A DNA stretch of 64,000 nucleotides from Reclinomonas americana ATCC 50394 (taxonomy: Eukaryota), in contig PS015106.1 in the NCBI GenBank assembly GCA_048213135.1, positions 27,192-91,191 on the forward strand. Reading direction: 5' to 3'. The translations under genes were made by a program, and so were the position numbers. Of the stretch, positions 1 through 64,000 are shown piece after piece. A model generated the notes under the pieces. The model was given only the letters and a program-made list of their open reading frames with translations, was not told the DNA's origin and did no database searches. Position 1 is the stretch's first letter. Each line of letters starts with the position of its first letter.

Positions 1-886
1 CGTACACGCACTGACGCTGTCGTCGTGTGCACAGTCCTCGCAACACGACATTCGCAAGACGCTGCATGCGGTGCTGAACAGCCGAGAAAAGCTGCAGCGG
101 CGTCTGCATGATTTGCTGCACAAGCATGAACAGTTGCGCGCCTCTTGCCGAGCGCACATGCGTGCGTGTGTGCATCTTCTGATATGCCATTTGCTGGCAG
201 CTCGCGACTCGACTGCGAGGAATTGTCGACACGGGTGAAGGAGTTGTCGTTGGAGCTGAGCCGCGAGCGATCTCTGCGGGACTCCATGTCTCTCGGTGCG
301 TTGTGAAAAAGAAGTCGCCTGTGCTCGACAACTGCCGATGATTGATTTACTCCATGCAGATCTGGAGCGATATCGCCTGCAGTTCGAGCTCCTGTCGAGT
401 GACCAGGACAGCAAGACGCACGAAAAGTCGCAGCTGCGACAGGAACTCGACGCAGTGAAGGTGAGAGCACCTTTGCTGTGCTCTGCACTGGTCTGGCACT
501 CAAGCATAGTGGCGCATCATAGGAACACGACAATCGACTGCGACGACAGGTGAAATTGCTGGAGACTGAGAAGGGAGTGTTGCAGCAGCAGCTGGAGAAG
601 GTGCAATCGTCGCTCGAGCAGTGCGTCAGCGAGGGCCGTGCGCTGCACGTCGGGAAGACGAAACTGGCCAGTGATTTGGAAGTGCAAAAGGCGGTGAGTG
701 ATGCGCAACAACTCGCTCGTCTCGTCTGTGTGGCCTCACTCACTCACTCCCGCGTTGCAGCTGCTGACGGCTGTCACCAACGACAAGAACAAGTTGGAGG
801 TGCGCATCGTCAACGAGTCGGACGCGGCGCAGCGGAGGATCCGCGAGCTGTCGGATGAACGTGATTTGCTCGGCCGCCGTGTGCAC
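1..886 (+). CDS. Partial multi-exon coiled-coil protein (5' end outside window, 3' end runs into gap)
   Basis: In-frame exons joined by GT-AG introns (e.g. 133-200, 295-359) give heptad-like E/L/Q/K-rich sequence (EELSTRVKELSLELSRERSLRDS; DLERYRLQFELL; KLLETEKGVLQQQLEK). Confidence 0.7.
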
Positions 887-1304
887 NNNNNNNNNNNNNN
901 NNNNNNNNNNNNNNNNNNNNNNNNNNNNNNNNNNNNNNNNNNNNNNNNNNNNNNNNNNNNNNNNNNNNNNNNNNNNNNNNNNNNNNNNNNNNNNNNNNNN
1001 NNNNNNNNNNNNNNNNNNNNNNNNNNNNNNNNNNNNNNNNNNNNNNNNNNNNNNNNNNNNNNNNNNNNNNNNNNNNNNNNNNNNNNNNNNNNNNNNNNNN
1101 NNNNNNNNNNNNNNNNNNNNNNNNNNNNNNNNNNNNNNNNNNNNNNNNNNNNNNNNNNNNNNNNNNNNNNNNNNNNNNNNNNNNNNNNNNNNNNNNNNNN
1201 NNNNNNNNNNNNNNNNNNNNNNNNNNNNNNNNNNNNNNNNNNNNNNNNNNNNNNNNNNNNNNNNNNNNNNNNNNNNNNNNNNNNNNNNNNNNNNNNNNNN
1301 NNNN

Positions 1305-2174
1305 TGAACGAGAACGAGGGATTACTCTCTTGCTGCACACGAACATCGTCCTTGTGGAGACCGGCGGCCGCCATGAGCGCCGCCACTGCGTTGCTGCCCG
1401 GTGACCCGTCCGGCGTCACCGAGCGACTGCTGAACGCACTGCCGGCCAGCGACGACGCCGCCGTAAAGGTGCCAGCAGTCACCGCCGAGTTCACCTCCTC
1501 CAGTCGCGCTCGAATGCTCGTCAGCTCCTGCTCCATGTCGGCATTGTGCTGCTGAAACAAGAGGTTCTGCTCGCTCAAATCCGCCACTTGTCGCTCCTTG
1601 TCCGCGCACGCCTCGATGAATCGCACAAACGAGTACCACGTCGACAGCGACGATGCACTCAGTCGTTCCTGCGCGAGTGTGTGGGGGTGTTGAGAGTCAT
1701 TCTCGGCGACCTGTAAGTGAGTGAGAGTGACCTTGATTTCAGAGGGCAGATCGGCCGAGAGTGCATGCGGATAGGCGCCCTGTGTGACCGCCTGCTCACT
1801 GACACTCCCAATGGCATCGATCAGGGCTTGCAGTGGCTGCGTACACACAGAGAGGGTGAGCGAGCGCGTGAGTGTGAGCGAGCACACTGGTGAGCGGGCC
1901 CACCTGCAAGTGCTGCTCAATGTCGGTCTTGTGTCGCGCCTCAGCGAGCTCCAACTGTGTCTGGAGCATGCGCGTCGACTTTTCGAACTCCAGGTTGTCA
2001 CTGTGTGTGCGTGTGCGTGTGTAAGTGGAGAGAGGGCGAGAGAGGCGGGATCTTGTATCTCTCTCACACACACGCGCGTTCTCTTTTGTCTCTTTTGTGA
2101 CACACTCACTGTTCAAGTGCGCTGATCAGGCGATCCTTTTCTGCCAGCACACGTTGAACATCGCTGGTCTCCAT
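1305..2174 (-). CDS. Unknown coiled-coil protein, spliced, 3' end in gap
   Basis: ATG at 2174 (METSDVQRVLAEKDRLISALE) followed by a GTGAGT donor. Later exons read NLEFEKSTRMLQTQLELAEARHK and KERQVADLSEQNLLFQQHNADMEQELTSIRARLEE. Confidence 0.6.
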
Positions 2175-2264
2175 CGTAACGATGGACGATCGACCTTGTG
2201 AGAGGACGGGACATTTTTTAATGCCCTTTTCTTCTCTTCCCTCACTTCTGCTCCCACTCTCTCT

Positions 2265-5376
<3,112 letters not shown>

Positions 5377-8390: not shown

Positions 8391-8521
8391 TAGGTTTACT
8401 TTTCTACTGCGCATGCAGATAGTCTTCCTGCGCTGCGATCGTACGCGTCGAGCGATTCCTGTAGCGGCATCCATCGTCGCTGATCAATCATGAATCCATG
8501 GCGCCCACCACCGATCCATCA

Positions 8522-8955
8522 TCAATCATCGATGAAACCATCGACAGCGCTAGCAGCAGGTGGTGTCCCACAAGCTCTGTGCACATGATTCGCGGCATGC
8601 ACGGTGTTGACGTCGGCATGCGCAATGGCACTGCGAATGACGGCGAGCAAGTTGTCCTCAGAAATGCCGTGATACCACTCTTGTGTATCGGCAAGCTGAT
8701 ATCCTTTTTTTCGAAGAATGGCATGAGCACGATATTCCGCATCCAGTCGACGTTCTGCTGACACCTGATGTCGCACAACAATGTCTGGATTGCCAGTCCT
8801 CAGTTGCATGTGACGCCTCTCCACGTCGTCACTGCTGCCGACTTTGAATCGGCGTCCGTCTCGGCAGTTCGGACGGGGATGAACGTGTGTGTCGGTCATG
8901 ATGTACACGAAACCTGGGCCGTTGCGGGTATTTCCCAGTCTCTGTGCATCACATT
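8522..8955 (-). CDS. GIY-YIG superfamily nuclease, T5orf172/MUG113-like domain
   Basis: GFVYIM...FKVGSSDDVERRHMQLRTGNP...AEYRAHAILR...TQEWY follows the T5orf172 pattern (VY, KVG.S, R..QL.TGNP, E..AH, EWF/Y). There is no upstream ATG in frame, so it may be spliced to the neighbouring ORF. Confidence 0.75.
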
Positions 8956-9050
8956 CTCAGCAGCATGTCAAAGTGCTCTTGCAGCCCTAAGGAATCGGGG
9001 TTCTAACAGTAAAAGCCTCAAGAATACGATGCAGGACGCGGCTCAACCAC

Positions 9051-10187: not shown

Positions 10188-10270
10188 TCCGATGAACAGG
10201 ACACGCCGCTGCGGGACGTTATCGACGTGAAACAGATATGACAGTGCGCTGATCAGCTTTGTCCAACGGG

Positions 10271-10837: not shown

Positions 10838-11800
10838 TTACTTCTTCTGCCGCTTGGTCTCCGGCGCCCCTTCCTCCTCCTCATCACCCGCTCGCTTACG
10901 CGATGCACTGCCCTCCTCGCCACCCTCTGCCTCCTCGCCCTCGCTGCCATCATCATCATCATCATCACCAGCAGCTGCATCGCCATACTCCTCATCGTCC
11001 TCATCGTCNNNNNNNNNNNNNNNNNNNNNNNNNNNNNNNNNNNNNNNNNNNNNNNNNNNNNNNNNNNNNNNNNNNNNNNNNNNNNNNNNNNNNNNNNNNN
11101 NNNNNNNNNNNNNNNNNNNNNNNNNNNNNNNNNNNNNNNNNNNNNNNNNNNNNNNNNNNNNNNNNNNNNNNNNNNNNNNNNNNNNNNNNNNNNNNNNNNN
11201 NNNNNNNNNNNNNNNNNNNNNNNNNNNNNNNNNNNNNNNNNNNNNNNNNNNNNNNNNNNNNNNNNNNNNNNNNNNNNNNNNNNNNNNNNNNNNNNNNNNN
11301 NNNNNNNNNNNNNNNNNNNNNNNNNNNNNNNNNNNNNNNNNNNNNNNNNNNNNNNNNNNNNNNNNNNNNNNNNNNNNNNNNNNNNNNNNNNNNNNNNNNN
11401 NNNNNNNNNNNNNNNNNNNNNNNNNNNNNNNNNNNNNNNNNNNNNNNNCTTACCAGTGGGGCCAGGGCGTCGACACTGCGGAACTTGTTTGCGGCGAGTG
11501 AGAGGGCGACGAGCTTTGGCAGTGCTGCAGAGGCCAAGTGCTCCAGTCCATCTTTCAGGTAGTTGTCGTCGAGAGACAGCTGCATGTGGAAGGCGTTGTG
11601 TGTGTGTGTGAGAGAGAGCGAGTGTGTGTGTGTGTGTGTGTGTTTGTGCGCAACTCGGACGAGTTCCGGAAGTGATGGGAAGCCCTCGAGTGACTTGAGT
11701 TTGCACACGTTCAACTCGAGCACTTGCAGCTTGTTGGCCAGCTCCTCGCCCAAGTCAGCCACCGCAGGCACGCGTGGCAACTGAGTGCAAGAGTGAGATA

Positions 11801-11846
<46 letters not shown>

Positions 11847-13283: not shown

Positions 13284-16200
13284 TTATACTTCGTCACCTA
13301 ACATCACTGCCGACAGACGCTCCATTAGCTTTAGCGCGTCCTCTTCCTCGGCAGAGCCTCGTCGACGAGTGGCGTTCTCGTCTAGCGATCGTTGTGCGGC
13401 GTGTAATGGCGCAGGCTTGCTCGGTGCTTGCTTCTGGAAGGAGGAGGCGCGCAGACGATGATGCAGCTCCAGCGGCGAGGTCGGCGAACGAGCGACGTGG
13501 TCGAAGCGGTCCTGCTCGACGCCGCCGGCGTACTCGTTATCGGGGTGGATCACACGTGCGTCTGGCGTGGCGCGACTCGGATGCTCGTCCAGCTCTTGGT
13601 CGACATCCATGCGACGGCGCGCAATGCCGCCACCGTTCATGCCACCGTGCTGCCGACTGCTGCTGTATCTGCTGCTGCTGCCACCACCATCGTCGTCGTC
13701 GTCGTCATCGTACCCATCGCCGTCCACGTCACCGCTTTCACCAATGGCCTCGAGTGCCGCCGCGGCCACGCGAAGCAAACTGTCATCGGTGGCGACCCGC
13801 CGATGCGTAGTCACCGGAGTCGTCGGCAGCTTGCTCACCGTGGCGGCAGCGGCTGCTGCTGCTGTCGCGGCTGCTGCGGCGGTGGGCGACGGCCGTGATG
13901 CTGGTCCCTCCTTGCTGAAAGCCACCATGGCCGCCACCAAGTCCGACGGGAGCTTGTGAATCAGGCCAGTCTGTGCACAGACACACAGCCAGTGAGACAC
14001 ATGCCTCCATCTTGTCTGTCGCGGCACACCCAAACCTCATGAGCTTGCGCGAGAAGGGCAGCCAAATCCTGTTCCATGACATGCAAGTAACGACGCCCGC
14101 GGAACAAATACTCGGTCGCGTGTGCCTCCTCAAACATTTGCAGCCTGCGCAAACCAGTCAAGATAAGAAACACAATGGATTGCTGATGTTCTTCTGGTCA
14201 TTCTTCTCGACATTCTCTTCCTCCTTCTTCCTTTCTACTTTCCTTGTTCTTCTTGAGTTGTCCTTATTGTCGGTGTTCTTCTTCTTCTCTTCCTCCACTC
14301 CCTCCTCTCCCTCTTCTTCTTTTCATATACTTCTTCTATTTCTTCTCTTTCTTCTTCTGTCATCGCCATCCTCTTCTCATTCCTCTCATTCTTCTTCTTC
14401 TCCTCCTCCTCCTCCTCATCCTCATTCTCCGCCTTCTTCCCATTCTCATTCATTTTTCTTCTTTTTCTCTTGTTTTTGACCTTCATCTTCTTCTTCTTCA
14501 TCGTTCTCGTATTCTCTTCTTCCTCACCTCCTCCCCCTCTTCTTCTTCTTGCCTTCCGTCTCCTTCTTCTCCACCTCATCCTTTCTCTCCTCTTCCTCCT
14601 CCCCCTCCCCCTCTTGTGCTTCTTCTCCTCCTCCGCCTCCTCTTCCTTCTCCTCTCCCCCTCCTCCTCCTCCTTCTCCTTCCATCGCACGCAACATTGGT
14701 CGCAGCTCAAACGACAACTGCGTAATGACTAGATACAGCGATACACGCTCATTGTCGACCGCCTGCATCTGCTGCTGATCCATCTCAAACAGACGCGACG
14801 GATTGTGCTGCGACTGCCGCAGCGATTCGAGCTTGAACTTGAAGTACTCGCGCTTTGTCAGGACCTCCATCGACGGCACCTTGGCCTGCTGCTTCGCCAC
14901 CTCCTCCTCGTACACGGCCACCACCTCTGGCGTGACCGCCAATTTGGACTCGAGACGAGCCAAAAACGCCACAATGTCCATCATGTCGCACTCCATGGCC
15001 TTCCACAGTTTTCGCAGTTGATTGGCCGCCGTTCTGGCATTCTGTGCGATTGCGCGTCAGCAACTTGCGACAACACGCCCCCACATCGTAGTCGTGTCAC
15101 GCACCTGTCGCAATATCCTCTCCATCTCCTCCTTGGCCTCCTTCTCCGCCTCCACCGTGTTCGCTCGCGCATTGGCCTCCAGACGATCCGTGACTCGGGC
15201 TTCCCCGTCAAAAATGGCCCCCGCCGTCTCGATCTCTCGCTGCAGCACAAGACCGGCGGCGTGCTCTATCCACAACGAGTGTCAGATGGAGCGCAAGAGA
15301 GAGAAAAATGTGAGGGCACTCACCGTCGGCCAATGCCGACACCTTGCTCTCCAACTCTTGAATGATGCTGCCATACTTGCGCTCCATTTCCAGCTGATAA
15401 TCCTCCTTCCATTTGTGCAGCGACAGGCGCATTCGGCGGCTCTTGGCTTCGTACGCCAGCTCGCTCTCTGTACACGCGGTCCGGCGCTGCACCATGTCCA
15501 CCTCCATCTTCTCCAACAGCTGGTCCGCTTGCAAGCGATACTCGTTGGCGGCGTTCTCGTAGTGCGTTCTCATCTGCACACACGCAAATGTCAACCAATA
15601 GCAGAAGGAGTGCAAGTGACAATCGTGACGCACCTTTTCATCATACAGTGACATCGCAATAAACATTTCGTGCTTCAGCTCGGTGAGCGAGTCCAACACC
15701 TGCCCATTGGTCATGTCGGTGGCGGACTTGTGCACCTGCAGCCAGAACAAATTCAGCGATTGCCACAGTCCCCTCTTTTTCTTTTCAGGAAACGCACCTC
15801 GCCGATTCGCTTAATTAAACCCTCGATCGTGCTCATCAATCCCTCGTAGTGGTGTCTTTGATTCACCTGATCGCACAGAAGGTTATCAACCCACTCGCCA
15901 CACACACGTCAGGAGCCTCTCTCTTTCACACACCTCCTGCACCGCCGAGGCGTGCTGATATTCGGCATGCCAAAAGTCCTCCAGCCGTGTCAGCACCTCC
16001 GAAATCCGCTGTCGCAGTGCATTATCCTCTGTCCTAAAGGCCTGCCGCAACGCCTGCGCGCGCTGCTGCACCAGAGTCGTCATCTCGTCGAGTTCACCCA
16101 CCAAGCGTTCCCGCATGCCGGCCTCCACTGCCATGGTGTACTCGGCGAATTTGTCGAGCAGCGTATCTTTCCGCGTGGTCAGATCCTGCTCCCTGCTCTC

Positions 16201-20307: not shown

Positions 20308-20481
20308 TGCTTATCACCGTGCATAATGAAACCCTCTTTCCCTCGTAGAGTACGCTGTTCTCACCCAGACCTCGTTGCCACTTTTACACTCGCGCGATAG
20401 AGGCAGGGAGATGCAGAGGCGAAAAAAAAAAGAGAAAACATGTATGACAAAAAAGACAGAAGAATTACATGATCATCACTA

Positions 20482-25894: not shown

Positions 25895-25949
<55 letters not shown>

Positions 25950-42250: not shown

Positions 42251-42628
42251 ACGCACATGTGCAAAAAAGAGGTGTGTGTGTGTGTGTGACACACACGCAC
42301 GCGCGCAACTCTGTCTCTCTGTTCATGGGAGGGCGTGGGGGAGAACGGCGACACGCTTCCTCACTTGCGCGGCCGAATAAACCGTCTTCTCGCCTTTTCT
42401 CACAGGAAACTCAAAAATCAATTGAATGCGCGCGACCGTTAGGACTGTTTCGATCGGTTTGGTGTGACGTGGCCGAGGAGCTCCCGGTGCGCACGTACAC
42501 AACGCTGACCACAAGCACGCAGAAAGAAGGGGAGGGGGAGGAGGAGGGAGAAGAGGAGACTATCCAAGGTTGGGGTGCTTGGACATACCCGTATGAAATG
42601 CAATGTACCCGGCATGTCACGAGCAGTT

Positions 42629-45600: not shown

Positions 45601-45685
45601 AAGAGTCGTCGTTCACGGAATGCCCGTCGACGGAGCCCGAGGTCACACCACCACCGGCAGACAGCAGTCGAGTGCGCTCGTTCAT
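42629..45685 (-). CDS. ABCG (White-family) half transporter, NBD-TMD
   Basis: Walker A GGSGSGKTSLLN, LTVRETLTYAAEFRLP, signature RGISGGERRR, Walker B LLLLDE/PTTGLD, NPADF and a TMD. Contains two gaps. Confidence 0.93.
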
Positions 45686-45775
45686 TTGCACTCACTGATG
45701 CACACAAACACAACACAACACAGACGGAGGACGGAGACTGACAAACGAAACTCCGACGACTGTGACTAACAAACA

Positions 45776-48700: not shown

Positions 48701-49252
48701 TTATCTGCGCTGGTTCCGACACGGTTCGGCTTGCGTGTTTCCGAAACGCTCCATCTCTCTTGCCGCTCACCTTCTCTCCTTCACTTGACAGTATCGCCGC
48801 TTCAGTACGGCTACTCTGGTCTGTCGTCGTGTTACTTTTGTGTGAAGTGATTGCCGAGTGTTGACACTCTTTGTGGCTTGCAGCCATGGCGTTGAACCAG
48901 TTCACCGACATGGTGTTCACATGTCCCGGCAATCAGGCCATTCAACCCGGCAACATTTGCCCCATTCCGAATGGCAACGCGGTCGGTGTTTGCATGTGCT
49001 GGCATGGGTTGATGGTGACGGACTGCCGTCTTATTTTGTTATGTGCACACAGTTGCTGCACATGCTCAACCTGGCCGACGCTGTGTTGTGGCATTCGATT
49101 GCGTTCCTCTGGGGATTTGCGCTCTTCAACATGACGATCGCCTACTTGAATCTGCGATTCGTCAAGCAGGTATGTCGTCGACACGCCTGGGTGCACGCCG
49201 CTCTGCTCTCTTACCCACTGTTGTTTTTGCGTACATGCAGACTCCAAAGTAA
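45776..49252 (+). CDS. ABCG (White-family) half transporter, NBD-TMD
   Basis: Walker A GTSGAGKTTLLN, YVKQDD, RGISGGERRRVSIG, LFLDEPTSGLD, CTIH, NPADH, TMD with FVYAREQ and C-terminal CPIPNG. Confidence 0.95.
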
Positions 49253-49287
49253 ATCCTCTACAACGTAAAGAAACACTTTCCTCCTCT

Positions 49288-52200
49288 TCATTCCTCGGCA
49301 TCGCCTTCCTCGGCATCCTCCTCCTCTCCGTCCTCCTCTTCCTCTTCCTCTTCCTCTTCGCCCTCTTCGGCAGTCCCGTCGATTTCGCTGTCGTCGCCAT
49401 GATCCTGAGCGCTGGAACGGCCGCTCTCTTCACCCTCCTCTGGGGTCTCCACAAGACGCACTCGTCGCTGTCGCGCGCTGCCCGGCGATTTCATAGCCGA
49501 CGGTGGAGATGGTTCTGTCGCCGGCTGCTGGATGAGCTGCACGGCTTGCTGCAGCAGATTCACCGTCTCCACCGCGTACGCCGTACGGTAGCCCTCAAAC
49601 AGACGCGTACCACCAGGTAGCGCGCTACTGAATGATTTGGATCGGCGTGGCGCCGCAGTGCGACGCGAGGCAGCTGGTGGTGACTGCGGCCATCGGATCG
49701 CTACTCCGCGCGGCGACTGGGCGGTGTCAGTGGAGATCTGTTGCGGACGCTGCGGCAACTGCGCAGTGGATCCTTGCGGTCGCAGCAGTGTTCCCGGCGC
49801 ACGCGCACCTCGATCATCACCTGCCGTCAGCAGCTCTGGCATCGGGAACTCAGGAACTGGTGCAATCGCTGCTTGGCGTGACACTGGACGCCGGTCGTTG
49901 TTGGGGCTGTATGTCGCAACACAAAGGTCATCATCCTTGTCTCAGCGACGCATTCCTTCGTGTGCATACACAGTACCTTGTGAGCCGCGGCGATGCAGGC
50001 GGCGATGTGAGGCTTCTGGTTGGCGAGAACCCTCGCGGCGCACTGGGTGGGCTCGACGAGCGAGGTGACAGGAGTGACGATGATGGTCGCCCACCCTCTG
50101 CCGAAGTCAACAGCCGACTCTCACGTGCTCCGCCCTCGCCGCCACGAGGCGACGGTGCGGCGCCCGCTTGCGCCTACAACCAACAAAACGCAGTCAACAC
50201 CCACGGTACACAAACCACTGAATAAATGGAACCAAATACTGACCGCCAGAGTCGAGAGATACGACGAGCGCGGGGGTGCTGCCTGGCGGCGGGGCGAAGA
50301 AGCCTGCTCGACACTCTCACCAGCTTCGTCCGCATCGGCGGCCGCGCGTTGACGAATCGAGTACAGAGAGCCAAGAGGCGAGTCCACCGACAGCGGCTGT
50401 CGAACAATCTTGTCACTCTGCCACTGGTGCTCATGCGTTCTGCAACCCGGTACGCGCGTCAGCAAAACTCGCACGCACATGCATGCTGCGTGGGCGGAGA
50501 CGCAACGATCGGTACACTGAACTGAGTTGATTACGCCCGTCACGGATCTACGACGACGAGTCAGAAAACGAGAACACATCAAGCGGACAATGTCGACACA
50601 AATCCCTGCTACCTTCAGCTCGCCAACGTAGCCAGTCGTTGGGAATTCTGGCGGTTGCAGTCGAGGGAAGGGAAGTGGCGGCGGCAGGCGCCGCGGTGGC
50701 GACACGCTCGATTCCGGACTCTGGCCAGATTTCTGTTGCGCGCGCAGGTTCTCTGCCAGCTGACGCATAATGTCGTCTGTGCTCTCAGCCGAATCCACTG
50801 CCGACGGAAGTCGACGACGACGCGGCGGAGATACATCAAACGGAAGTCGCAACTCGGCCTGCTCACGGTCCAAATCAGCCGTCGACTCTCGAGGCGGCGA
50901 AACACGTGCACGCTCGCGTTCAGCGGCCGCCGGTCGTGGAGCTCGCTTTCCGGCACGTCGCTGCACTGGAGGCGAGGGAGAGCCAAATGGGGAAGCCTCC
51001 AGAGCTGCATCAGCGGCCTTGGAACGCTTCCTCCTCCGTGTTGGCGATGAGTGCAACGGCTGTGAGAAAAAAGGAGCCGAGTCAGACTTGTGGGTGCCAC
51101 ATGGAGTAAGGAGCAATAACATGCCGAAGCACCTCAGCCTCGGGAGGCGGCGGAGTTGGCGGTAGCGGCGGTGGAATGCGCTCTGGATCTCGATCCACGG
51201 CAGCAAGCAGCTCTCCACCTATCGGAGACGGCGACGACGTCTGCCACGGAATCAGTTCCTGTGTGCATGTGCAGCACATGTGAGTGCCGACAATGACGCG
51301 CAGAGCAGAGATCGCAAGTGGCTGGCCGACGAACCTCCGGTTCGGTACGCTCAGTCGCTGTCGGAGCCACTTCGTTGGCTGCGCCTGCAGCTGCACTGCC
51401 GCGCTTGCCAGTCTTACCACCAACTTTCCGAGACGACGGCGACACCGATCTGGAAGATCCCTTTGTGGTCTGCGTGCATCAAATGAGCAACGGCCACACA
51501 ACGACTGATAGACATCCGTAATAGACCCCCCGCAATACCTTGTCAACGACGTCTTGCGCGGCGCCCACCTTGGCCTTCTTGCCTTTCTTGCCACTTCTCG
51601 GCGATGCCAGTGCCTCAGCCGCATCGTCACCCGACTCCTCCGCTGCCGCAGCCTTCTTCTTGTCCTCTCTGCCTTCGCCGCCCGTCTCCGCACCATCCTC
51701 CTTGTCAGTTGCACCAGCGTCCTCCTCCCCCTCCTGTACCGCAGCCTTGGTCTTATTCCCCTTCTTGCCACTCTTCGGCGATGCCTCACCAGCCGCCGCC
51801 TCGTCACCCGACTCCTCCGCAGCTGCACCCTTCTTCTTCGCCTTGCCACCCTTTTTGCCCTTGCCAGTAGGAGTCTTCGACTCCTCAGCCTCACCCTCCG
51901 TCTCGGCGCCATCCTCCTTGTCAGTTGTGCCAGCTTCCTCCTCCCCCTCCTGTGCCGCAGCCTTGGTCTTCTTCCCCTTCTTGCCACTCTTCGGCGACGC
52001 CTCACCAGCCGCCGATTCGTCACCCGACTCCTCCGCCGCCACGCCCTTCTTCTTCGCCTTGCCACCCTTCTTGCCCTTGCCAGTGGGAGTCTTTGACTCC
52101 TCAGCCTCACCCTCCGTCTCGGCGCCATCCTCCTTGTCAGTTGCGCCAGCCTCCTCCTCCACCTCCTTTGCCGCAGCCTTGGTCTTCTTCCCCTTCTTGC

Positions 52201-54521
52201 CACTCTTCGGCGACGCCTCACCAGCCGCCGATTCGTCACCCGACTCCTCCGTCGCCACGCCCTTCTTCTTCGCCTTGCCGCCCTTCTTGCCCTTGCCAGT
52301 GGGAGTCTTTGACTCCTCAGCCTCACCCTCCGTCTCGGCGCCATCCTCCTTGTCGGATACACCAGCCTCCTCCTCCACCTCCTTTGCCGCAGCCTTGGTC
52401 TTCTTGCCCTTCTTGCCACTCTCCGGCGATGCCTCACCAGCCGCCGATTCGTCACCCGACTCCTCCGCAGCTGCACCCTTCTTCTTCGGCTTGCCGCCCT
52501 TCTTGCCCTTGACAGTGGGAGTCTTCAACACCTCAGCCTCACCCTCCGTCTCGGCGCCATCCTCCTTGTCGGTTACACCAGCCTCCTCCTCCTCCTCCTT
52601 TGCCGCAGCCTTGGTCTTCTTGCCCTTCTTGCCGCTCCTCGGTGATGCCTCACCAGCTGCCGATTCGTCACCCGACTCCTCCGCAGCTGCACCCTTCTTC
52701 TTCGGCTTGCCGCCCTTCTTGCCCTTGCCAGTAGGAGTCTTTGACTCCTCAGCCTCACCCTCCGTCTCGGCGCCATCCTCCTTGTCAGTTGCGCCAGCCT
52801 CCTCCTCCACCTCCTTTGCCGCAGCCTTGGTTTTCTTCCCCTTCTTGCCGCTCCTCGGCGACGCCAGTGCCTCAGCAGCAGCAGCCTCGTCACCCGACTC
52901 CTCCGCAGCAGCACTCTTCTTCTTCGCCTTGCCGCCCTTCTTGCCCTTGCCGCCCTCTTCCACTTCAGCAGGCGTTGGCGGCGCAGCTTCCTCGACGGCA
53001 GCATCCTTGGTCTTCTTTCCTTTCTTGCCGCTCCTCGGTGATGCCAGAGCCTCTGCCGCCTCGTCACCCGACTCCTCTGCCGCCGCACCCTTCTTCTTCG
53101 ACTTGCTACTGCTGGTCTTCTTGCCGCCCTCTTCCGCTTCAGTGACAGGCGTCGGCGGCGCAGCCTCCTCGACAGCAGCATCCTTGGTCTTCTTCCCCTT
53201 CTTGCCGCTCCTCGGCGACGTCAGTGCCTCAGCAGCAGCAGCCTCGTCACCCGACTCCTCCGCAGCCGCACCCTTCTTCTTCGACTTGCTACTGCTCTTC
53301 TTGCCGCCCACCTCCGCTTCAGCAGCAACGGGCGTTGGTGGCGCAGCCTCCTCGACGGCAGCATCCTTGGTCTTCTTCCCCTTCTTGCCACTCCGCGGAG
53401 ACGCCAGAGCCTCTGCAGCCTCGTCACCCGACTCCTCCCCCGCCGCACCCTTCTTCGCCTTGCCACCCTTCTTGCCCTTGCCGCCCTCTTCCGCTTCAGC
53501 AACAGGCGTTGGTGGTGCAGCCTCCTCGACGGCAGCATCCTTCGTCTTCTTCCCCTTCTTGCTACCCCTCGGCGACGCCAGTGCCTCTGCCGCCTCATCG
53601 CCCGACTCCTCCGCCGCCGCACCCTTCTTTTTCGACCTACTACTGCTGCTGCTGGCCTTCTTGCCGCCCTCTTCCGCTTCAGCAACAGGCGTTGGTGGCG
53701 CCGCCTCTTCGACGGCAGCATCCTTGGTCTTCTTTCCTTTCTTGCCGCTCCTCGGCGATGCCAGAGCCTCTGCAGCCTCGTCACCCGACTCCTCTGCCGC
53801 CGCACCCTTCTTCTTCGACTTGCTGCTGCTGGTCTTCTTGCCGCCCTCTTCCGCTTCAGCAACAGGCGTTGGTGGTGCAGCCTCCTCCGCGGCAGCATCC
53901 TTGGTCTTCTTCCCCTTCTTGCCACTCCTCGGTGATGCCAGAGCCTCTGCAGCAGCAGCCTCGTCACCCGACTCCTCCGCCGCCGCACCCTTCTTCTTCG
54001 ACTTGCTACTGCTGCTCTTCTTGCTGCCCTCTTCCGCTTCAGCAGCAACAGGCGTTGGTGGTGGTGCCGCCTCTTCAGCAGCATCCTTGGTCTTCTTCCC
54101 CTTCTTGCCACTCCTCGGCGACGCAAGTGCCTCTGCAGCAGCCGCCTCGTCACCCGACTCCTCCGCAGCCGCACCCTTCTTCTTCGACCTACTACTGCTG
54201 CTCTTCTTGCCGCCCTCTTCCGCCTCAGCAGCAACAGGCGTTGGTGGTGGTGCCGCCTCTTCCGCAGCGCCCTTGGTCTTCTTGTCGCGCCGGCTGCGTG
54301 CCTTGTCGATCTCCTCCACTGCCGGAGAGGGTGCCTCCACTTCGGCTGGCACAGTTGCGCCCTTGCGACTGCTCCGCGGCGTCTCGGCGGTCTTTTTCGC
54401 AGCCACCTTGTCCGCTGCTGGTGCCGGTTGCGGAGGCGCCTCAACAGCAACCTCCTCCGGCGTCGAGACCTTCTTGTCCCTCCGACTGCTGCGCGGCTTC
54501 TCCGTGGTCGCGGCAGGCTCA

Positions 54522-54557
<36 letters not shown>

Positions 54558-57500
54558 GCCGTGGCTTTGCTGTCTCGACTCTTGTCTGTTGACGGCAACT
54601 TGCCGCCCTTCACGGGCGTGGCCGGGGCCTCAGGCTCCACGGAGACCGGTTTCCCGCGACTCTCGGGAGCCGGTGGCGAAGCGTCGCGCGACCGCTTTCC
54701 ACCCTTCTTTTCCACAACCTCTGCGGCTGCAACTGGGACCTCAACCGGTGCAGGCGTCGCGTCCTTGCCGCGCCGATCCTTTCGCTTGTTGTCGACGGCG
54801 GCGTTGGCAGCAGCGACAACGGCCGGCGATTTTGGTTCTTGCGGTGTTATCGCGGCTCCGGTGGCCCGGCCGCCCTTTTTTCCCGCCACCGGTTGCTCTG
54901 CGGTCGGTGGTGCGGTGGTGGCGACTGCAGGCTGTGCATCGGGGGCAGTGGGCTTGTCACGCGGCGTCCTGCCACTTGTCTTGGGTTGCACAGGTGCTGC
55001 TGCTGCTGCTGGCGCCTCCTGCGCGACGGTTGCCGGTGGTACTGTTGCTGTAGCCGGCGCAGGCTGTCCACGGCGCGGTGACGTGTCGCGCGAACCCCGA
55101 TCCCGTCCCTTGCCGCCATCTGCACCAGCCACTGGAGCAGGGGCAGCTGGCACGACAGGAGCAGGAGTAGCTGGCGCCGCCGCAGCCGCGACCTTGCCTC
55201 CGGGAGGCGCACGCTTTCCACCATCTGGCGCTGGCGTCGCTGCGGAAGCGGCTGCCGCCTCCGCCGGCCCGGCCTTCCCTCCACGTTTACCGGCGACGGC
55301 AGCAGCGGCTGTAGCGGCAGTCGGACTGGCTGCTGCTGCGGCAGCCGGTGGGGCGGCAGGACCAGTTTTTCCGGCAGCAGGTGCAGTCTTTCCGGCGGCT
55401 ACTCCAGCCTTACCCGCCGGAGCCACCTTGCCAGCCGGAGCCGTCTTGCCAGTGGGTGCGGTCTTGCCGCCCGCAGACGCCACTGGAGTCTGCACAGCGG
55501 CAGGTTCCTGCAAGATGCGTGTTACACGTCTGTGAACGCAAACTCTACATCTCGACAGGCTCGGCAACTCACCGGCGGCTTGTCCTTCTCGGTAGCTTTG
55601 ACAGTCCCAGCAGCGACAGCCTCGGCCACTCGCGCCCACCTGCTCCTTCGTGGCGACTCGCCAGAAATCATTTCGTCACTGCCAGTGCCGCCAATCGCAG
55701 CAGATGCCGCCATGGCTGCCGGTCCACGGACTGCACGGCAGTGTGAGTGACTGATGGTGGGGAGACAAGTACCGTCAACTGAATTGAACGCACCACCCTT
55801 GAGCACAGCACGCTGTGCCCACGCTGCATCCTCTTCGGCAGTCTGCATTCGCCCTCGCCCTCGACGCTCCGCCAGCAGCCGCAGCTGCTCATTCAACACT
55901 GAATCGTCTCCGTGACCCTCCTCGTGGTCTCTCTCCGCCATGGCCAGCTCTGCATCCGTGCGTGACTGCGCGGCAGAGCCTCTCACAATGCCTCCCGCCG
56001 CCCCTCCCGCAGCGCGACCGCCATACCGAGGCGGCGCAGCGCCATGAGGACTCAAGATGGTGTCACCAGCCCCGACTGCCGAGGCGAGTGTCGGCAACGC
56101 CGACGATGAAGTCGAGATGTCGTCCGACGACACGGTCGACGCCGTGCTGTGGTGACCACGCTTGCGCAGCTTCTCGAGCTGCTGACGGAACCGTTCGTCA
56201 TCCTCTTCCGCGTCGGCCTCATCGTCAGCATCGCCACTGACGTCGGCCAGTCGTTCACGGATGCTGGGCGGCTTGTCGAGTCCGTGGAACGGCAAAATTG
56301 CACGATGACCAGGTCGCTCAGGCGACGCATCGCGAGCACGCACATGTCGTGCACCGGCGCCGGCACCCACTGGGAACTCTTGCGCGCTCGCCACCGATGA
56401 GGCGTCGTCGTCGTGCACCGCCCACTGCACCTTTTCCATTAAAGTGCGCACGTCGCCTCCACCGGCTGGTGGCTGCACCTGCGGCCGTAACACCGGCCGT
56501 GCCGCCATGCGCGCCACTGGATACTCTTCAGCACCAGCCTCCGACATGGCGTCGTCAACTGAGTCCGTCTCCCTTGTCGCCTTGTGCGACACTCCCGTGG
56601 AATTCACCAGTCGGCGCGGATCCGTTCCGTGACCGGCCAGCGGTGGCCCCGGTACCACCGACTCCAACATGGTTCGCAGCGGTGGTCGTGCTGTGTGATT
56701 CACTGAGAGTCGCGACGAAGCTGGGGCCATGCCAGGCACCTCCCCGTCTACGACAGCCGTGCTCTCGTCATCATCCGACGCGGCGCTATTCGGAGTACGT
56801 GTGACGCGGCGCGCACGCACCGCTGACGACGCCGTGGCTGTCGGTCCGGCGTCGGGATGAGGGGCACGGACACGTGGGCCGGGCACACGAGGCATCAAAT
56901 CCCGCGGCCGTGATCCACCGTCGTAGTAGCTCACGCGCACAGACGNNNNNNNNNNNNNNNNNNNNCCGGCGGTAGTCAAGTGTGCGTACGCCGCATCTGG
57001 CGGAGTCGGCGGCCGCCCCTGCCCCGACTCATACTTGCTGGAGACCGGCCGTTGCGCAGCGCTGAGCAGTCCCTGCGAGACAGCCGCAGTGCGCTGCTGC
57101 TCCGACATGTTCACCCAATCATCCGTAAACGCGCGCAGATCTGCATACCCACGCAGTGCTGTCGCCGCCACTCGTGGATTGTCGCACTCGAACTCGGCCA
57201 GCACACGATTACTGGCCGACATGAGCACCACCAGCCCACGATCCACATCCTGCATCACTTGCGTCGAGCTGCTGAGCGGATACTGCACGGAAATCGTCGG
57301 CGGAATGTCGGCCACATCCACGCCGCTTTGGATCTGTGCGACAGGGGGAACGAGTGAGAGGGATAGAGGAGGAGGAGGAAGAAGAAGAACAAGAGAGGGA
57401 GAGAGAGAGGGAGGAGGAGACGGGGCAAGAGAATGAGGAGCTCACCAGCTTGTTGCTCTCCGTGGCCGTGACGGCCCTCTCAAACGCCACCTCCTTGGCA

Positions 57501-57914: not shown

Positions 57915-58272
57915 CTGTGTGTGTTTTTCGGGTGTGACAGATACGTTTTTGCGAGCACCACCGACGTCTGTCCCCTCGGCCACAGTCTGATCGAGTCTTG
58001 GTTGGACAACTAGCGGTACAGCAAGTGGTCCCAGCAAGTGTTGTGCCAGGAGCCGGCAAGCTGTCACGTCACTCCGGCGCAGCGGAGACCAATCGACGTC
58101 GACGTTGTTCGAAGTTGGCGCAAAACAACCGACCGCCGTCTTGCAAACGATGTGCAAGGTAAGAGGCAGAGAGAATGCACTACCGCAATGCCGCGCGACA
58201 AGAGACTCATGCTCCGCGAATCGTGGGACTCGCGTGTCCTGTTACTTTCTTTTCTTCATTCTATTCGCCACA

Positions 58273-61200
58273 ATGCAACGCCGGCAGCAGAAACGACAAA
58301 AGCGGCCTCGCGTGGAAGAGGTCATTGATGAAGAGCCTGCGGCTGCAGTCGTAGAAGAGGAGGAGCAAGCCGATGCCAATCACTGGCACGGTGGTGGCGA
58401 CTTGCCTTGGGACGACGAGGATGACGAGGAGGAGGAGGATGGCGACTTTGAAGACGATGAGGATGATGATGACGACGACGATGCATTCAGCGACGATGTT
58501 GTCGAAGAAGAGGACGATCTGGATGCGTTGATTGAGGCGGCGGCTGCACGAGGTCCGCCATGCATGTGCACATTCACACACTTTTTTTCTTTGCGCCCCC
58601 CCACTTCATTCACACAATCCACTGTTGCTTGTGCAGCACCGGCGCGGACCGATGCCCGTGATGAGAAGCGTGCGCGTCCGGCCGAGGACGATGAGGACTC
58701 GTCGGATGATGAGACGCTGACGAATACGATTGGCAATGTGCCGCTGGAGTGGTACGATGATTACGACCATGTGGGGTATGACGTGGCGGGCGAACGGATT
58801 GGCAAGTCGGCCTCGAAGAAGATGGATTTGGTCGATCGGCTGCTGCGCATGCAGGATGATCCGGACTACATGTTGCGTTTTTTCTTCCATTTGCGAACAA
58901 GAGACAAGAGTGTTGACTCTCTGTGCATAGTCGAACTGTATACGATGCACTGCATGATCAGGAGCATGTGTTGACGCACGAGGAGCTGGAGACGATCCTG
59001 CGCATTCGGCGTGGCCAGTTTGCGGAAAAGTCGGTCGCCACCGAGATTGTTGCGTCGCTTTTGTGCACTCTCATTAGTGTGGCATGCATGTTTTTCTCAC
59101 CTTTGCTCGCTGCAGCCTCTGTATGGCACCGGCGAGAAAGAGTTGCATCCGCTGCGCAATGCACCGCTCAAGAAGAGCCGCTTCATCCCGTCCAAGAACG
59201 AAGGCAAGATTGTGGCGCACTACCGCAAGCTGATCCGCGAAGGCAAGATCCCGCCGTTTGAGCCGAAGCTGGATCCGGAGGCACTGGAGCAGTTGCCGAC
59301 GCCTCACGATTTGTGGGGCCGTGGCTCCGACGCCAAGCTGCCGTCGTACCACGTGCCGCCGCCGAAGCTGCCGCTGCCGGGTCACGCCGAGTCGTACAAT
59401 CCTCCTGCCGAGTACCTGCTAACGCCCGAGGAGGAGGAAGTTTGGCGCAATCGCGATNNNNNNNNNNNNNNNNNNNNNNNNNNNNNNNNNNNNNNNNNNN
59501 NNNNNNNNNNNNNNNNNNNNNNNNNNNNNNNNNNNNNNNNNNNNNNNNNNNNNNNNNNNNNNNNNNNNNNNNNNNNNNNNNNNNNNNNNNNNNNNNNNNN
59601 NNNNNNNNNNNNNNNNNNNNNNNNNNNNNNNNNNNNNNNNNNNNNNNNNNNNNNNNNNNNNNNNNNNNNNNNNNNNNNNNNNNNNNNNNNNNNNNNNNNN
59701 NNNNNNNNNNNNNNNNNNNNNNNNNNNNNNNNNNNNNNNNNNNNNNNNNNNNNNNNNNNNNNNNNNNNNNNNNNNNNNNNNNNNNNNNNNNNNNNNNNNN
59801 NNNNNNNNNNNNNNNNNNNNNNNNNNNNNNNNNNNNNNNNNNNNNNNNNNNNNNNNNNNNNNNNNNNNNNNNNNNNNNNNNNNNNNNNNNNNNNNNNNNN
59901 NNNNNNNNNNNNNNNNNNNNNNNNNNNNNNNNNNNNNNNNNNNNNNNNNNNNNNNNNNNNNNNNNNNNNNNNNNNNNNNNNGTTCACAGGTGGCGATGAC
60001 TGCACGCTGCGATTATGGGAGGTGCGCACGGGTCGGTGCTTGCGAATGTGGCGCGCAAAGGACGTGGTGCAGTGTGTTGAGTTCCATCCGCTGGCCACTG
60101 TTCCGCTGTTGGTGGCTGGTGTCGACACGGGTGAGTGGTAGCCGATGACTGTTTGTGTGTGTGTGCGGGGGGTGCGATGATGGCTCACGCTTTCGCGATG
60201 CAGATCTCGTCTTCTTTGACAGCAAGATCGGCAATGCCGACTGCCGTGAACGTGTGCTTTCTGTGGCCCGTGCGGCGCGACAGGAGATTCCGACCGGCCA
60301 GCGACCGGTGGCAGAGTGGATTTCGCACCTGGATGGGTCGGTGGCGCCTGAGGCTGCCGCCGAGGGCCCGAGCGACGGACAACGTAACCAGTGGCGTGAA
60401 CTGGAACCACTGTTCACCATTCGCCACGAGTTCAAGCTTCGTCAAGTCACCTTCCATCACAAGGGCGACTACCTCGCTGCTGTGTGCCCCGACGCCAACA
60501 CTCGCGGTGTGGTGATTCATCACCTCGGCAAGCGCCAGAGCCAGTGCCCGTTCAAGAAGACCAAGGGCCAAGTGCAGGTGAGCACACGCGCCCGCATAAC
60601 ATGCGTATCGTATCCTTGCTGATCACCCTCTCTCTCGTTCCCTATCTCTTGCACGCTCGCAGCAAGTTGCCTTCCACCCCACCGAGCCACGCTTCTTTGT
60701 GGCCACGCAAAAGTTTGTGCGCATCTACGACCTGGTCAAGCAGGAGTTGGTGAAGCGACTGCAGCCGGGCGTGCGCTACATTTCCAGGTTTCGTCCCCGT
60801 GATTTGCCACCTGCTGCTGTCGGTGGGTTGTTGATCCTCACGTGGGTGCGTGTGTGTGTGTGCATGCAGTCTGGATGTGCATCCGGGTGGCGAGAATGTG
60901 CTGTTGGGCTCGTACGATCGCAAAGTGGTGTGGTTCGACACGGAGCTCAGCTCGCAGCCGTACCGCACCATGCGTCACCACAAGGAGGCTGTCCGTGCGG
61001 TGCGTGCGGATTTGTGTGTGTATCGTTTCCATGTTTGAGAGCAGATGACTGATGTCTTGCTGTTGCAGGTGGCATATCACCGTCGGTTACCGCTGTTCGC
61101 CACGTGCAGTGACGACTTGTCGCTCAGCATTTTCCACGGCATGGTGTACTCGGATCTGTTGCAAAACCCGCTGATTGTGCCCGTCAAGCGCATTCGTCAG

Positions 61201-61308
61201 GGTCACATGCGTGCCGAGGACATGGGTCTCTTGGTGTGCAAGTGGCACCCACACCAGCCGTGGATCTTCACTGGCGGTGCTGATTTCATGATCAATCTGT
61301 ACTCGTGA
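58273..61308 (+). CDS. BOP1: Ribosome biogenesis WD40 protein BOP1/Erb1
   Basis: DSSDDE...[76 protein letters not shown] and [14 protein letters not shown]. Confidence 0.97.
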
Positions 61309-61544
61309 GCCTCGTCAGTGAGTACACAATAACCCTACGCCACTAAAACAACAACAACATCAACAGTTTATTCGTTCACCTCTGTGCGACAGAGATTTAT
61401 AATTATATTGTGAATTGCAGCAATTATCATTATTATTGTCGCGCCGAATCGGCGGTCGGCGCAGGCGATTCCGAGTGTGGTGGCGTTGGCGGCGCCTCGT
61501 CCAGTATTACGCCGCTCTCAGTCATCTGTGCACGCAAGAGAAGT

Positions 61545-64000
61545 GGGTCACGAGAGCTCTCTAGCGCAGCAAATGCACAAAACTGACCTCGTCTCCCGTG
61601 GCTCCCGTTTCCGCGGCGACGCCATCAAATGCCTGCGGCATCTGCAGACAGCGACAACGTGGTGAATGATGGTGTGCACAACAACAACAACTGCAACATT
61701 GTTGAGCAGCCAGACAGCGTACCGTGGCCTCATCCAGCAGCTGCAGGCGAAGCATCTGCGATGCGACACACGGCTAAGTACCAACAAAGGCGAAAAGAGA
61801 AAGAAAGAGAGACGTGAAGAGTCAGACAACAACGTACCTCGGCGGCTTCAGCGGCCACTCGTTGGCGCTGCGCACGACAAGTCAGTGACAAGTGTACGAC
61901 GATTTTTTGCGTAGCAGTAGTACTCACCTCTTGTTCTTCGGCTGCCTCGCGCTCTTGCTGTGGGAGAATGCACAGACAATACAGTCAGTGTCGGCATGTG
62001 CGTGGCTGAGCATGAAGGCGACACGAACCTGCTCCCGTGCCAATCGAGCCCGTTCTTGAATGGCGGCCACTTCTTCGGCCTGCCGGCGCTCCACAGCCTC
62101 CTCGCGCTCCATTAGCTCCTTGAGGGCCCGACGCTCCGCCATGATGCGCTCGCGATGCTCAGCCTCCTACAGAAGCACAACCCCACCAACGCGATGAGTT
62201 GACCACAGTAGCGCACTATGAAGAACTCAATAAGTGCACCTCACGCGCACGCCGATCACGCTCCTGTCGCTGCAACATGATGGTGTCCTCGTTGGCCAAA
62301 CGCGCCATGGCCTGATCCGCAGGCACGGGGATGGTGGTGCGTCCGAGCCACTGTTGAACGCACTGGCCACCGATCTCCGGCTCCAGGAGTGCCAAGTAGT
62401 AACAGAAGCGCTCAACGAGCCGTCGACGTGGTCCGATTTTCGCCAGCACCTCCTCGTACACATTGCGATTGGTGAGTTCTGTGTCTTTGGGGGCGGCAAA
62501 GGGGTCGTCGTCCGGCGTTTCCGGTGTCTCGGAGGGTATCTCAAAAAGCTGCACGCGCGACGGAGTGGCAGCTTCCGGTCCGCTCGGCGACTTGCTCCGC
62601 TGCTCGTGCTCCAATTGTCTCTCGATCTCGTCGGCCTCCTCCTTGAGCACCGCGAGAAGCTCCTGCCCAAACGTGCCTGCCAAGAGAGTGGCAATCAGTG
62701 CACCCAAACACAAGCTGCATACATACTGGGAGGGCATGCACGCACTCGGCTGTCCTTCGGCCAGCAGTGAGCGCCGCACAGTGTCCAGCACACGCTTGGT
62801 CGGCTTCTCCATCCGACATTCCAGCATGTTCATCATGGCACGCACAAGCAGCATGGCGTCGTGAAACACGCCCACGCGGTACCCTGCGTGGCGCATCATG
62901 ATCATCACTTATTAGCATCGCCTGATCGCAGAAAAAGAAGCACTGTGCTGTCACGCAACCGCACAGCAGCACGCGCTGCAGCATCTTGGAGGCCTTGGAA
63001 GCGGTGGCCGCCGACAGCAGGCGGCGGTCAACGTCGGCAATGATGCGCAGGTACGCAAACACCGGGCTCTGCAGCGATGGCTCACGCAGTGCCGAGTGTG
63101 CATACATGGACACAATGCGCTCTGCAAACGAGTGCAGAATAGATGAATTGATGTGGAAGAGCAAAAAAAGGAAACCACCAAGCCGCCACACCATTGAGTG
63201 TTGCCTGCGTCAGACCGAACGTGTACAAGTCGAATGTCTCCACATCTTGCAGCGTGAGATGCTCGCTGAGTACCCACAGCTGCGAGAGGAGGGTAGTCGA
63301 TTGCCGCATGTCACGCAATACTTCCTCTGTGTACGCAGGTCACAACACGGTGACGACGACGCAAGCGGGCACGTACACACAGCAGCAACAGCGCGCTCGC
63401 ACCTTGTTCAGTGAGCAAGATGAAGCACTTGAGCAGAGCACGAGCAGCGTCGGTCTTCCAGTCCACAAGGTGCAGAATGGTGACCACGGCGTGATGAATC
63501 GAGTCGGTCGAAAGCACTGCGAAGCAAGGTCACAATCTCCACATCACGCACACGCATACATAAACGCATGGCACACCTGAAAGGTCTCCAGCACCAGTCA
63601 GCCGCTGCAAAATGTCGGCCAGCATGATAAACAGCGGCTGATCAACCGAGAACAGCTCGACTTCGCGCAGCGGCACAATTACAGTCTCGAATGGGAGGGA
63701 GCCACTGGAGGAGCCAATCTTCGCTGCCGCATGAACTGATACAGAGTGGTGAGCGTGGGGAGGCGCTACAATGAGCTTGATGCGAGTGCGTTCCGCACCT
63801 GCCAGACATGGATTCTCGGCAGCCTTCATGGCCAGCCAACGGCTAGCATCGCTGGCACACAGTTTGAAGAAGGAGCGACGGAATGTCGACCCCAGTAGCG
63901 TGTCGATACCAAACTCTGTATAGAAGCAGGTTAGTGCACGTGCTGCTGCGACATCGCTCGACATGCACAGGCGACGAAACTGGTCGAAGTCAAATCCCAC
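61545..64000 (-). CDS. Partial unknown multi-exon protein (5' end outside window), helical with C-terminal coiled coil
   Basis: Open exons at 63577-64000, 62238-62682 and 62029-62168 with GT-AG junctions. Family not recognised and 3' end approximate. Confidence 0.55.

Follow-up and report, generated by a model that had tools for sequence, protein, structure and literature searches.

Evidence for a GTTGCG(T) class of 5' splice sites, displaced by one base from the ordinary donor pattern, in short introns of Reclinomonas americana

In a 64,000-nucleotide (nt) stretch of the Reclinomonas americana ATCC 50394 genome (assembly GCA_048213135.1, contig PS015106.1, positions 27,192 to 91,191 of the forward strand; hereafter the window), many introns appear to begin with GTTGCG, usually followed by T, instead of with an ordinary donor such as GTGCGT or GTGAGT. 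A sequence-only reading of the window had listed 32 donors of this kind, joined exons by reading frame into about 30 introns, and interpreted A/GTTGCGT as AG/GTGCGT slid by one base (the slash marks the junction). Comparison with homologous proteins confirms that the listed sites include genuine splice donors, and it supports GTTGCG(T) as a frequent donor class, present at 9 of 29 homology-consistent junctions. We propose, at somewhat less than an even chance, that this second donor class on U2-type introns is read in a register slid by one nucleotide, probably by a non-standard U1 small nuclear RNA (snRNA).

Junctions were placed with a spliced protein-to-genome aligner that has neither a donor nor an acceptor model: every GT..AG intron between 35 and 400 nt long costs the same flat penalty. 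Relatives found by single-exon queries for four conserved genes served as input, and to count as consistent a junction needed the agreement of at least 75% of the homologs. The nine GTTGCG starts among the 29 consistent junctions compare with a background share of 0.93% of the GT sites in the window (70/7499; P=4.6e-12). In BOP1, with 55 homologs, GTTGCG donors were chosen at 58872 (51 homologs) and 59049 (46), beside GTGAGC at 60578 (47), GTTTCG at 60788 (46) and GTGCGT at 61000 (44). In a four-domain ion channel gene with 24 homologs, the class donors are 40944 (20), 38249 (18), 36014 (24) and 35499 (24), and the other consistent junctions are 41080 GTCTGC (20), 39062 GTGCGT (19), 38902 GTGCGG (19), 35781 GTGCGT (24) and 35251 GTTTCG (21). 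Two ABCG transporter genes have four homologs each. The plus-strand gene yielded one class donor, 46135 (4), and eight others, and the minus-strand gene yielded 44613 (3), 44484 (4) and four others, after exclusion of one apparent junction across a gap of Ns. The four genes were picked because they hold many listed sites, and the 31% class share is therefore an overestimate; a CASP gene in the same window has about ten predicted introns, none of the GTTGCG type.

GTTGCG stands at all 32 listed positions in the orientation given (6 plus, 26 minus). Removing a GT..AG intron of 53-206 nt preserves the frame at 29 of the 32 sites (53-82 nt at 27 of them); two others run into N gaps and 14694 has no acceptor. 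The sites, and one candidate absent from the earlier list, are as follows.

133-200, plus strand: GTTGCG intron of 68 nt, frame-preserving GT..AG join, in a gene without a known family.
2678-2745, minus strand: GTTGCGT intron of 68 nt in glucosidase II beta; frame join, the following exon matching PF07915 from its first codon.
3756-3835, minus strand: GTTGCGT intron of 80 nt; frame join only.
3894-3964, minus strand: GTTGCG intron of 71 nt; frame join only.
4797-5002, minus strand: GTTGCGT intron of 206 nt; spliced peptide continuous, next exon matching PF12999 from its first codon (E=1e-20).
5088-5246, minus strand: GTTGCG intron of 159 nt; frame join only.
11580-11654, minus strand: GTTGCG intron of 75 nt in an LRR gene; frame join, LRR family match.
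14689-14694, minus strand: GTTGCGT site, doubtful as a donor; no acceptor-like site downstream.
20955-21025, minus strand: GTTGCGT intron of 71 nt in an EF-hand gene; unique EF-hand join, EF-hand_7 match to the exon end.
21195-21260, minus strand: GTTGCGT intron of 66 nt; frame join.
23933-24009, minus strand: GTTGCGT intron of 77 nt; frame join, with an alternative acceptor (113 nt) likewise in frame.
24167-24222, minus strand: GTTGCGT intron of 56 nt; frame join.
24938-25001, minus strand: candidate GTTGCGT intron of 64 nt, not in the earlier list; weak, from ab initio runs only.
30607-30664, minus strand: GTTGCGT intron of 58 nt; frame join.
34416-34497, minus strand: GTTGCGT intron of 82 nt in an EF-hand gene; unique EF-hand join, EF-hand_7 match to the exon end.
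34930-34959, minus strand: GTTGCG donor, sequence only; the intron enters the N gap 34682-34929.
35428-35499, minus strand: GTTGCGT intron of 72 nt in the four-domain ion channel; 24/24 homologs.
35941-36014, minus strand: GTTGCGT intron of 74 nt in the channel; 24/24 homologs.
37096-37162, minus strand: GTTGCGT intron of 67 nt in a channel linker; frame join, 0/24 homologs, unconserved region.
37544-37620, minus strand: GTTGCG intron of 77 nt in a channel linker; frame join, donor taken by 2/24 homologs with other acceptors.
38173-38249, minus strand: GTTGCGT intron of 77 nt in the channel; 18/24 homologs.
40871-40944, minus strand: GTTGCGT intron of 74 nt in the channel; 20/24 homologs.
43076-43107, minus strand: GTTGCGT donor, sequence only; the intron enters the N gap 42919-43075.
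43424-43492, minus strand: GTTGCG intron of 69 nt in the minus-strand ABCG gene; frame join, 1/4 homologs.
44417-44484, minus strand: GTTGCGT intron of 68 nt directly ahead of the Walker B motif; 4/4 homologs.
44549-44613, minus strand: GTTGCGT intron of 65 nt directly ahead of the ABC signature; 3/4 homologs.
46135-46200, plus strand: GTTGCGT intron of 66 nt in the plus-strand ABCG gene, within its Walker A region; 4/4 homologs.
47812-47864, plus strand: GTTGCGT intron of 53 nt; frame join, 2/4 homologs.
48006-48075, plus strand: GTTGCGT intron of 70 nt, preceded by a 30-nt exon; frame join only, 0/4 homologs.
50440-50506, minus strand: GTTGCGT intron of 67 nt; frame join only.
58872-58930, plus strand: GTTGCGT intron of 59 nt in BOP1/ERB1; 51/55 homologs.
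59049-59115, plus strand: GTTGCGT intron of 67 nt in BOP1/ERB1; 46/55 homologs.
62884-62959, minus strand: GTTGCGT intron of 76 nt, the sole listed site with G at -1; frame join only.

The 206-nt intron at 4797-5002 in glucosidase II beta holds a long (GT)n microsatellite, which stretches it to roughly three times normal size. Nine sites are supported by at least 75% of homologs and two more by EF-hand loops. In the EF-hand test, open, in-frame GT..AG combinations within 45 nt were compared against a PROSITE-type pattern. Of 17 such combinations at 21025 and 11 at 34497, the listed join alone produced an EF-hand loop spanning the junction. The strict pattern failed at 21025 (G at loop position 7), and relaxing one position gave the unique match. 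In addition, Pfam matches abut four junctions, beginning at the first codon after introns 5002 and 2745 and extending to the last codon ahead of introns 21025 and 34497. Sites with neither homology, EF-hand nor Pfam support are joined by reading frame only.

One may ask whether the listed sites are largely mis-called, the GTTGCG being exonic or the real junctions lying at nearby GTs. Within the four tested genes, 7 of the 16 listed donors lack homology confirmation: 47812, 48006, 43492, 37162 and 37620 fall where conservation is lacking or beside very short exons, and 34959 and 43107 adjoin N gaps. Nearby in-phase GTs can substitute with the frame intact, as when a donor-blind ab initio run took 46147 over 46135, and of 28 reference junctions the ab initio finder retrieved just 9-11. 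Site 14694 is doubtful and looks exonic: several hundred bases of purine-rich open frame come next, with no acceptor-like site; this stretch (14200-14690, minus strand) is rich in GAG/GAA, stays open in one frame and lies directly after 14694. Against mis-calling stand the nine junctions picked by 75-100% of homologs without a donor model, the unique EF-hand joins, the enrichment of T at +7 at listed sites only and a strong sense-strand bias of the copies. Moreover, the donor-blind alignments of the four genes gave no consistent alternative junction contradicting any of the seven unconfirmed donors. We regard large-scale mis-calling as very improbable.

The hexamer GTTGCG has 70 copies over the two strands of the window (23 plus, 47 minus), well above the roughly 37 that base composition predicts. 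Within the four genes defined by homology, sense copies outnumber antisense copies 22 to 3 (binomial p=1.6e-4). As had been noted, the +7 base is usually T: it is T at 25 of the 32 listed sites and at 7 of the 38 remaining GTTGCG sites (Fisher p=7e-7), and +7 lies outside the search word. Because of this enrichment, the listed sites can be said to have a longer consensus, GTTGCGT, that the other copies lack. To pass a stringent, donor-blind local test, a site needed coding potential in both flanks, a read-through frame that is broken, a branch-like motif and a sufficient acceptor score, the scoring having been trained only on introns that do not start with GTTGCG. Under this test GTTGCG ranks first among hexamers, with 6 of 69 sites passing versus 75 of 7434 GT sites (p=7e-5). 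When genes were predicted ab initio with no donor model, GTTGCG led the donor hexamers, alone or tied, in two runs (13 introns in one, 7/112 in the other) and came third after GTGCGT and GTGAGT in a further run (5-8 of 78-92), and an expectation-maximization version with a learned donor table gave it 11 of 88. This finder also merged or lost genes, and it was left out of the donor census because it is too insensitive.

The base ahead of the junction differs between class and ordinary donors. At the listed sites it is A in 15, T in 11, C in 5 and G in 1, the single G being that of 62959, as the sequence-only reading had it. Ordinary donors do often follow G: -1 G is found at 15 of 19 other confirmed donors versus 1 of 32 class donors (Fisher p=1.7e-8). 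The proposed anti-correlation of GTTGCG with -1 G thus holds against ordinary donors, but it is not specific to donors, as unlisted GTTGCG sites carry G in just 3 of 38 cases (p=0.62). Since the non-donor copies are equally low, the scarcity of -1 G in the class shows only that the usual selection for G is absent.

A sister form, GTTTCGT, occurs among the confirmed junctions. It has 10 copies in the window and likewise no +5 G. Two introns are placed by the donor-blind alignments.

60788-60869, plus strand: GTTTCGT intron of 82 nt in BOP1; 46/55 homologs.
35180-35251, minus strand: GTTTCGT intron of 72 nt in the channel; 21/24 homologs.

Further GTTTCGT candidates are 48629 (plus strand), picked by a few homologs, and 17443 (minus strand), picked by an ab initio run. 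Both atypical forms can be written as GT + T + (G/T)CGT, set against the ordinary GTGCGT and GTTCGT. In other words, C-G-U occupies +4 to +6 in ordinary donors (GUGCGU, GUUCGU), and +5 to +7 in the class, behind an extra U. GTGAGT-type donors are about as common as the GTGCGT type. Homology also confirmed very degenerate donors, namely GTCTGC at 41080 (minus strand), GTCGGT at 48982 (plus strand) and GTACGC at 47597 (plus strand). Donor recognition therefore seems generally permissive, and against that background the sharply defined GTTGCGT stands out all the more.

Apart from their first seven bases, the class introns resemble the others. When 24 class introns are set against the 19 other introns of the reference set, the median length is 68.5 versus 69 nt, the G+C content 0.53 versus 0.54, the distance from the last CTNAY-like motif to the 3' end 19 versus 22 nt, and the -3 base is C in 19 of 24 versus 18 of 19. 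The CTNAY-like motif is present in 20 of the 24 class introns (median distance to the 3' end, 19 nt), and the five class introns without C at -3 have T. The class thus agrees with the U2-type pattern of a branch-like motif and a pyrimidine-rich tract ahead of a YAG end, with values as in the other introns, keeps frame with GT..AG at the 29 sites described above, and restores the conserved protein at confirmed junctions. Because length, G+C, branch motif and CAG end all match, we take the class to be ordinary short U2-type introns with different first seven bases. No downstream motif common to the 24 class introns was found beyond +7.

Two other identities for these introns were examined. Copies of a mobile introner element ending by chance in GTTGCGT would explain why many introns have the same first seven bases. 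An all-against-all blastn-short comparison of the 24 class and 19 other interiors returned only chance-level matches of 8-14 nt, and pairs from inside the class did no better than pairs drawn from different classes. The 5' end of the intron has a longest complement to its own interior of 3.6 nt on average versus 2.5 nt in shuffled sequence, reaching at least 6 nt in 2 of 29 introns, with no consistent structure; lengths are as in other introns. We reject an introner origin, which we consider scarcely credible. U12 introns are likewise marked by a second, sharply defined donor consensus beside the major one. The U12 consensus comprises an RTATCCTT-type donor and a TCCTTAAC-type branch site. The class differs in both its donor, GTTGCGT, and its branch sequence, its branch-like motif and CAG end being those of the other introns here, and a U12 assignment was rejected against this consensus.

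The question then is what reads the heptamer. Formally, A/GTTGCGT is AG/GTGCGT slid by one base, and the class agrees with the slid AG/GUGCGU at 7 of 8 positions. The one-base slide suggested by the sequence-only reading thus describes the sequence. Standard U1, however, is a poor reader of it, and that interpretation is partly supported, its mechanistic side being conjectural. With duplexfold free to choose any register, and the standard U1 5' end taken from Tan et al. 2016 (PMC4856993), the mean pairing energy was -0.8 kcal/mol for the 9 confirmed class donors, -5.5 for the 19 other confirmed donors and -2.7 for 1000 random GT sites (class versus other confirmed donors, Mann-Whitney p=7e-5). 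The class thus pairs with standard U1 worse than random GT sites do. The +6G:U1 C4 pair appears in the minimum-energy duplex of only 11 of the 32 listed sites, the energies of all sites falling between -3.4 and +0.7 kcal/mol, and no non-canonical register on standard U1 offered a clearly more stable, usable helix.

Standard U1, together with standard U6, could still read GUUGCGU by shifted or bulged pairing if aided by U1-C, other proteins and intron definition over very short introns. Such registers, both shifted and with a one-nucleotide bulge, are experimentally established in human cells (PMC4856993; PMC9311317). In addition, standard U1 fits the ordinary donors of the window, weak pairing may be tolerated where other confirmed donors are as degenerate as GTCTGC, GTCGGT and GTACGC, and standard U1 is retained in species with +4 C, as discussed below. 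The pairing energies speak against it: few of the listed sites form the +6G:C4 pair and none is better than -3.4 kcal/mol, whereas a human shifted-register test oligonucleotide is given at -6.5 (PMC4856993). Moreover, if standard U1 tolerated an extra U, GUUGAGU should be at least as good a site and should be used, A being preferred over C. GTTGAGT stands at background in the window, with 10 copies compared with 32 of GTTGCGT, and this level speaks against tolerance. Reading by standard U1 would also leave the sharply defined heptamer unexplained while other donors are degenerate. Simple tolerance by standard U1 is argued against by the weak pairing, the GTTGAGT level and the -1 pattern, and we judge reading by standard U1 unlikely, at about one chance in four.

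The discrete second 5' splice site on these ordinary-sized U2-type introns, GUUGCGU with its rarer sister GUUUCGU, is instead, we tentatively propose, read in a register slid by one nucleotide, so that +3U to +7U would face the bases normally opposite +2 to +6. The reading snRNA would probably have a non-standard 5' end. The best candidate is U1, either as the sole U1 or as a second variant, with G in place of the pseudouridine opposite C, and cleavage would stay fixed at GU by later U5/U6 steps. An in-silico scan of 64 hypothetical U1 5' ends, with nt 5-7 varied, offers a plausibility argument that a variant U1 or U6 could fit better than standard U1. The two ends that set both donor classes furthest above random GT sites carry G at nt 5 and give -7.8 or -5.8 kcal/mol for the class, -9.2 or -7.8 for the others and -5.5 or -4.2 for random sites; both pair class positions +3 to +7 contiguously, in the slid register. 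One of the two is the U1 variant reported for Mastigamoeba by Roy & Bowser (bioRxiv 10.1101/2022.06.08.495308). A more specific form of this proposal has two co-dominant donor registers, read either by a non-standard U1 5' end with G facing the C at +4/+5 or by a pair of U1 species; it is possible, at about one chance in three.

Several points weigh against a second donor class read in the slid register by a variant U1. Besides the seven donors without homology confirmation, a loose test based on open reading frames fails to single out GTTGCG (21 of 68 sites pass, against a background of 20.6%); this test is unspecific, with 17-21% of all GT sites passing. The -1 A that a slid register predicts is found at 15 of 32 listed versus 10 of 38 unlisted sites, a difference that is not significant (p=0.086). 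The energy scan is drawn from 9 and 19 donors, and its nearest-neighbour energies describe very short bare helices that lack U1-C and any other protein. All energies fall as the hypothetical U1 ends become richer in GC, and the gain of the class minus that of random sites is only about 1.7-2.3 kcal/mol. GTGAGT-type donors are also in use here and fit standard U1. Finally, Thecamonas and Mamiellales prefer +4 C yet keep standard U1 (Roy & Bowser, bioRxiv 10.1101/2022.06.08.495308), and a preference for GTGCGT alone therefore predicts no changed U1.

A third possibility is that the heptamer is read mainly by a partner other than U1, either U6 or U5 pairing in the tri-snRNP or a protein at UGCGU. 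The poor U1 fit and the single -1 G among 32 sites would agree with this. There is precedent in a reported division of 5' splice sites into U5-loop-1-dependent and U6-ACAGA-dependent classes (PMC11732430) and in proposed non-canonical U6 registers (PMC11162779). The window gives no positive sign of such a reader, and the class has no common motif past +7. We consider a non-U1 reader rather improbable, less so than mis-calling and more so than standard U1.

Like the class described here, human shifted and bulge donors have a downstream pairing block displaced by one nucleotide from the cleavage site, with the cut still at GU. In human genes, +2/+3 bulge sites number 68 predicted and 54 after curation (Tan et al. 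2016, PMC4856993), and shifted-register and bulge-register donors are credited by later papers to Roca & Krainer 2009 and Roca et al. 2012. Human sites are rare and keep a long, A-rich match to standard U1, whereas the Reclinomonas class makes up about one third of homology-confirmed junctions, has a fixed heptamer with C at +5 and fits standard U1 below random. Entamoeba offers another parallel, a co-evolved U1 having been reported there (Roy & Bowser, bioRxiv 10.1101/2022.06.08.495308). According to that preprint, the Archamoebae Entamoeba and Mastigamoeba have, as here, a lineage-specific donor that does not pair with classical U1, and the Mastigamoeba U1 change, which faces +4 C, is the change favoured by our scan. 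In those lineages, one atypical consensus in the normal register supplants the normal one; here, two discrete donor classes stand side by side, with a one-base displacement and in an intron-dense genome. The GYGCGY donors of Thecamonas and Mamiellales, used with standard U1, resemble the ordinary GTGCGT of this window, and the section covering them contains no GTTGCG-type class. The motifs in a diplonemid splice-site paper differ from GTTGCG(T). A literature search found no published description of a GTTGCG(T) donor class; supplements were outside its reach, and the genome paper could still mention one. In sum, the Reclinomonas donors differ from these systems as a one-base-displaced, sharply defined donor that would form a major class beside ordinary donors in an intron-dense genome.

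The window belongs to a draft contig with 13 N gaps, and 58% of its called bases are G+C (34,454/59,508). Genes were placed by Pfam matches on the 150 longest stop-free frames.

About 1306-5350, minus strand: glucosidase II beta gene.
20480-23230, minus strand: EF-hand gene.
31760-34030, plus strand: CASP gene.
34930-42900, minus strand: four-domain ion channel gene.
43076-45700, minus strand: ABCG transporter gene, head-to-head with the plus-strand ABCG gene.
45800-49500, plus strand: ABCG transporter gene, head-to-head with the minus-strand ABCG gene.
57990-61310, plus strand: BOP1/ERB1 gene.

By single-exon protein query, the closest relatives reach 58% identity for an ABCG exon and 45% for a BOP1 exon, and a glucosidase II beta query returned no relatives; no protein encoded by the window itself was among the matches. 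A metagenome scan gave 80 loci, all at or below 49% identity across most of the query, with short segments up to 68%. Rfam gave no match on the 64-kb window at gathering thresholds, and at E<=1 it gave seven weak matches to unrelated families, no snRNA among them. The two ABCG half-transporter genes have mostly different intron positions in the nucleotide-binding domain, and at the sole position in common, after LDE, the donors are GTGCGT and GTTTGC. The stretch 51482-55675 is 65% G+C, reads open over some 1400 minus-strand and some 1340 plus-strand codons, and carries near-identical repeats spaced by about 648 nt, with identical 30-nt contexts at 52140 and 52788; Pfam on its longest frames gave no credible family. 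On the minus strand, 8525-8956 is an open frame with a T5orf172/MUG113 (GIY-YIG-like) domain (E=5e-7).

Few features of spliceosomal introns are as conserved as the +5 G and the fixed spacing from the cleaved GU to the block paired with the snRNA. To our knowledge, donors displaced by one base have been described only in human genes, where they are rare exceptions, and the cases of snRNA and splice-site co-evolution that we know of are mostly in intron-poor genomes. In practical terms, gene finders trained on one donor model would mis-annotate this genome, and both the donor-blind finder and a single donor weight matrix did poorly on it. If displaced donors are about as common as ordinary ones, R. 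americana would be a natural system for studying how U1, U6 and U5 fix the cleavage site apart from the pairing register, and it would allow snRNA and splice-site co-evolution to be tested in an intron-rich lineage.

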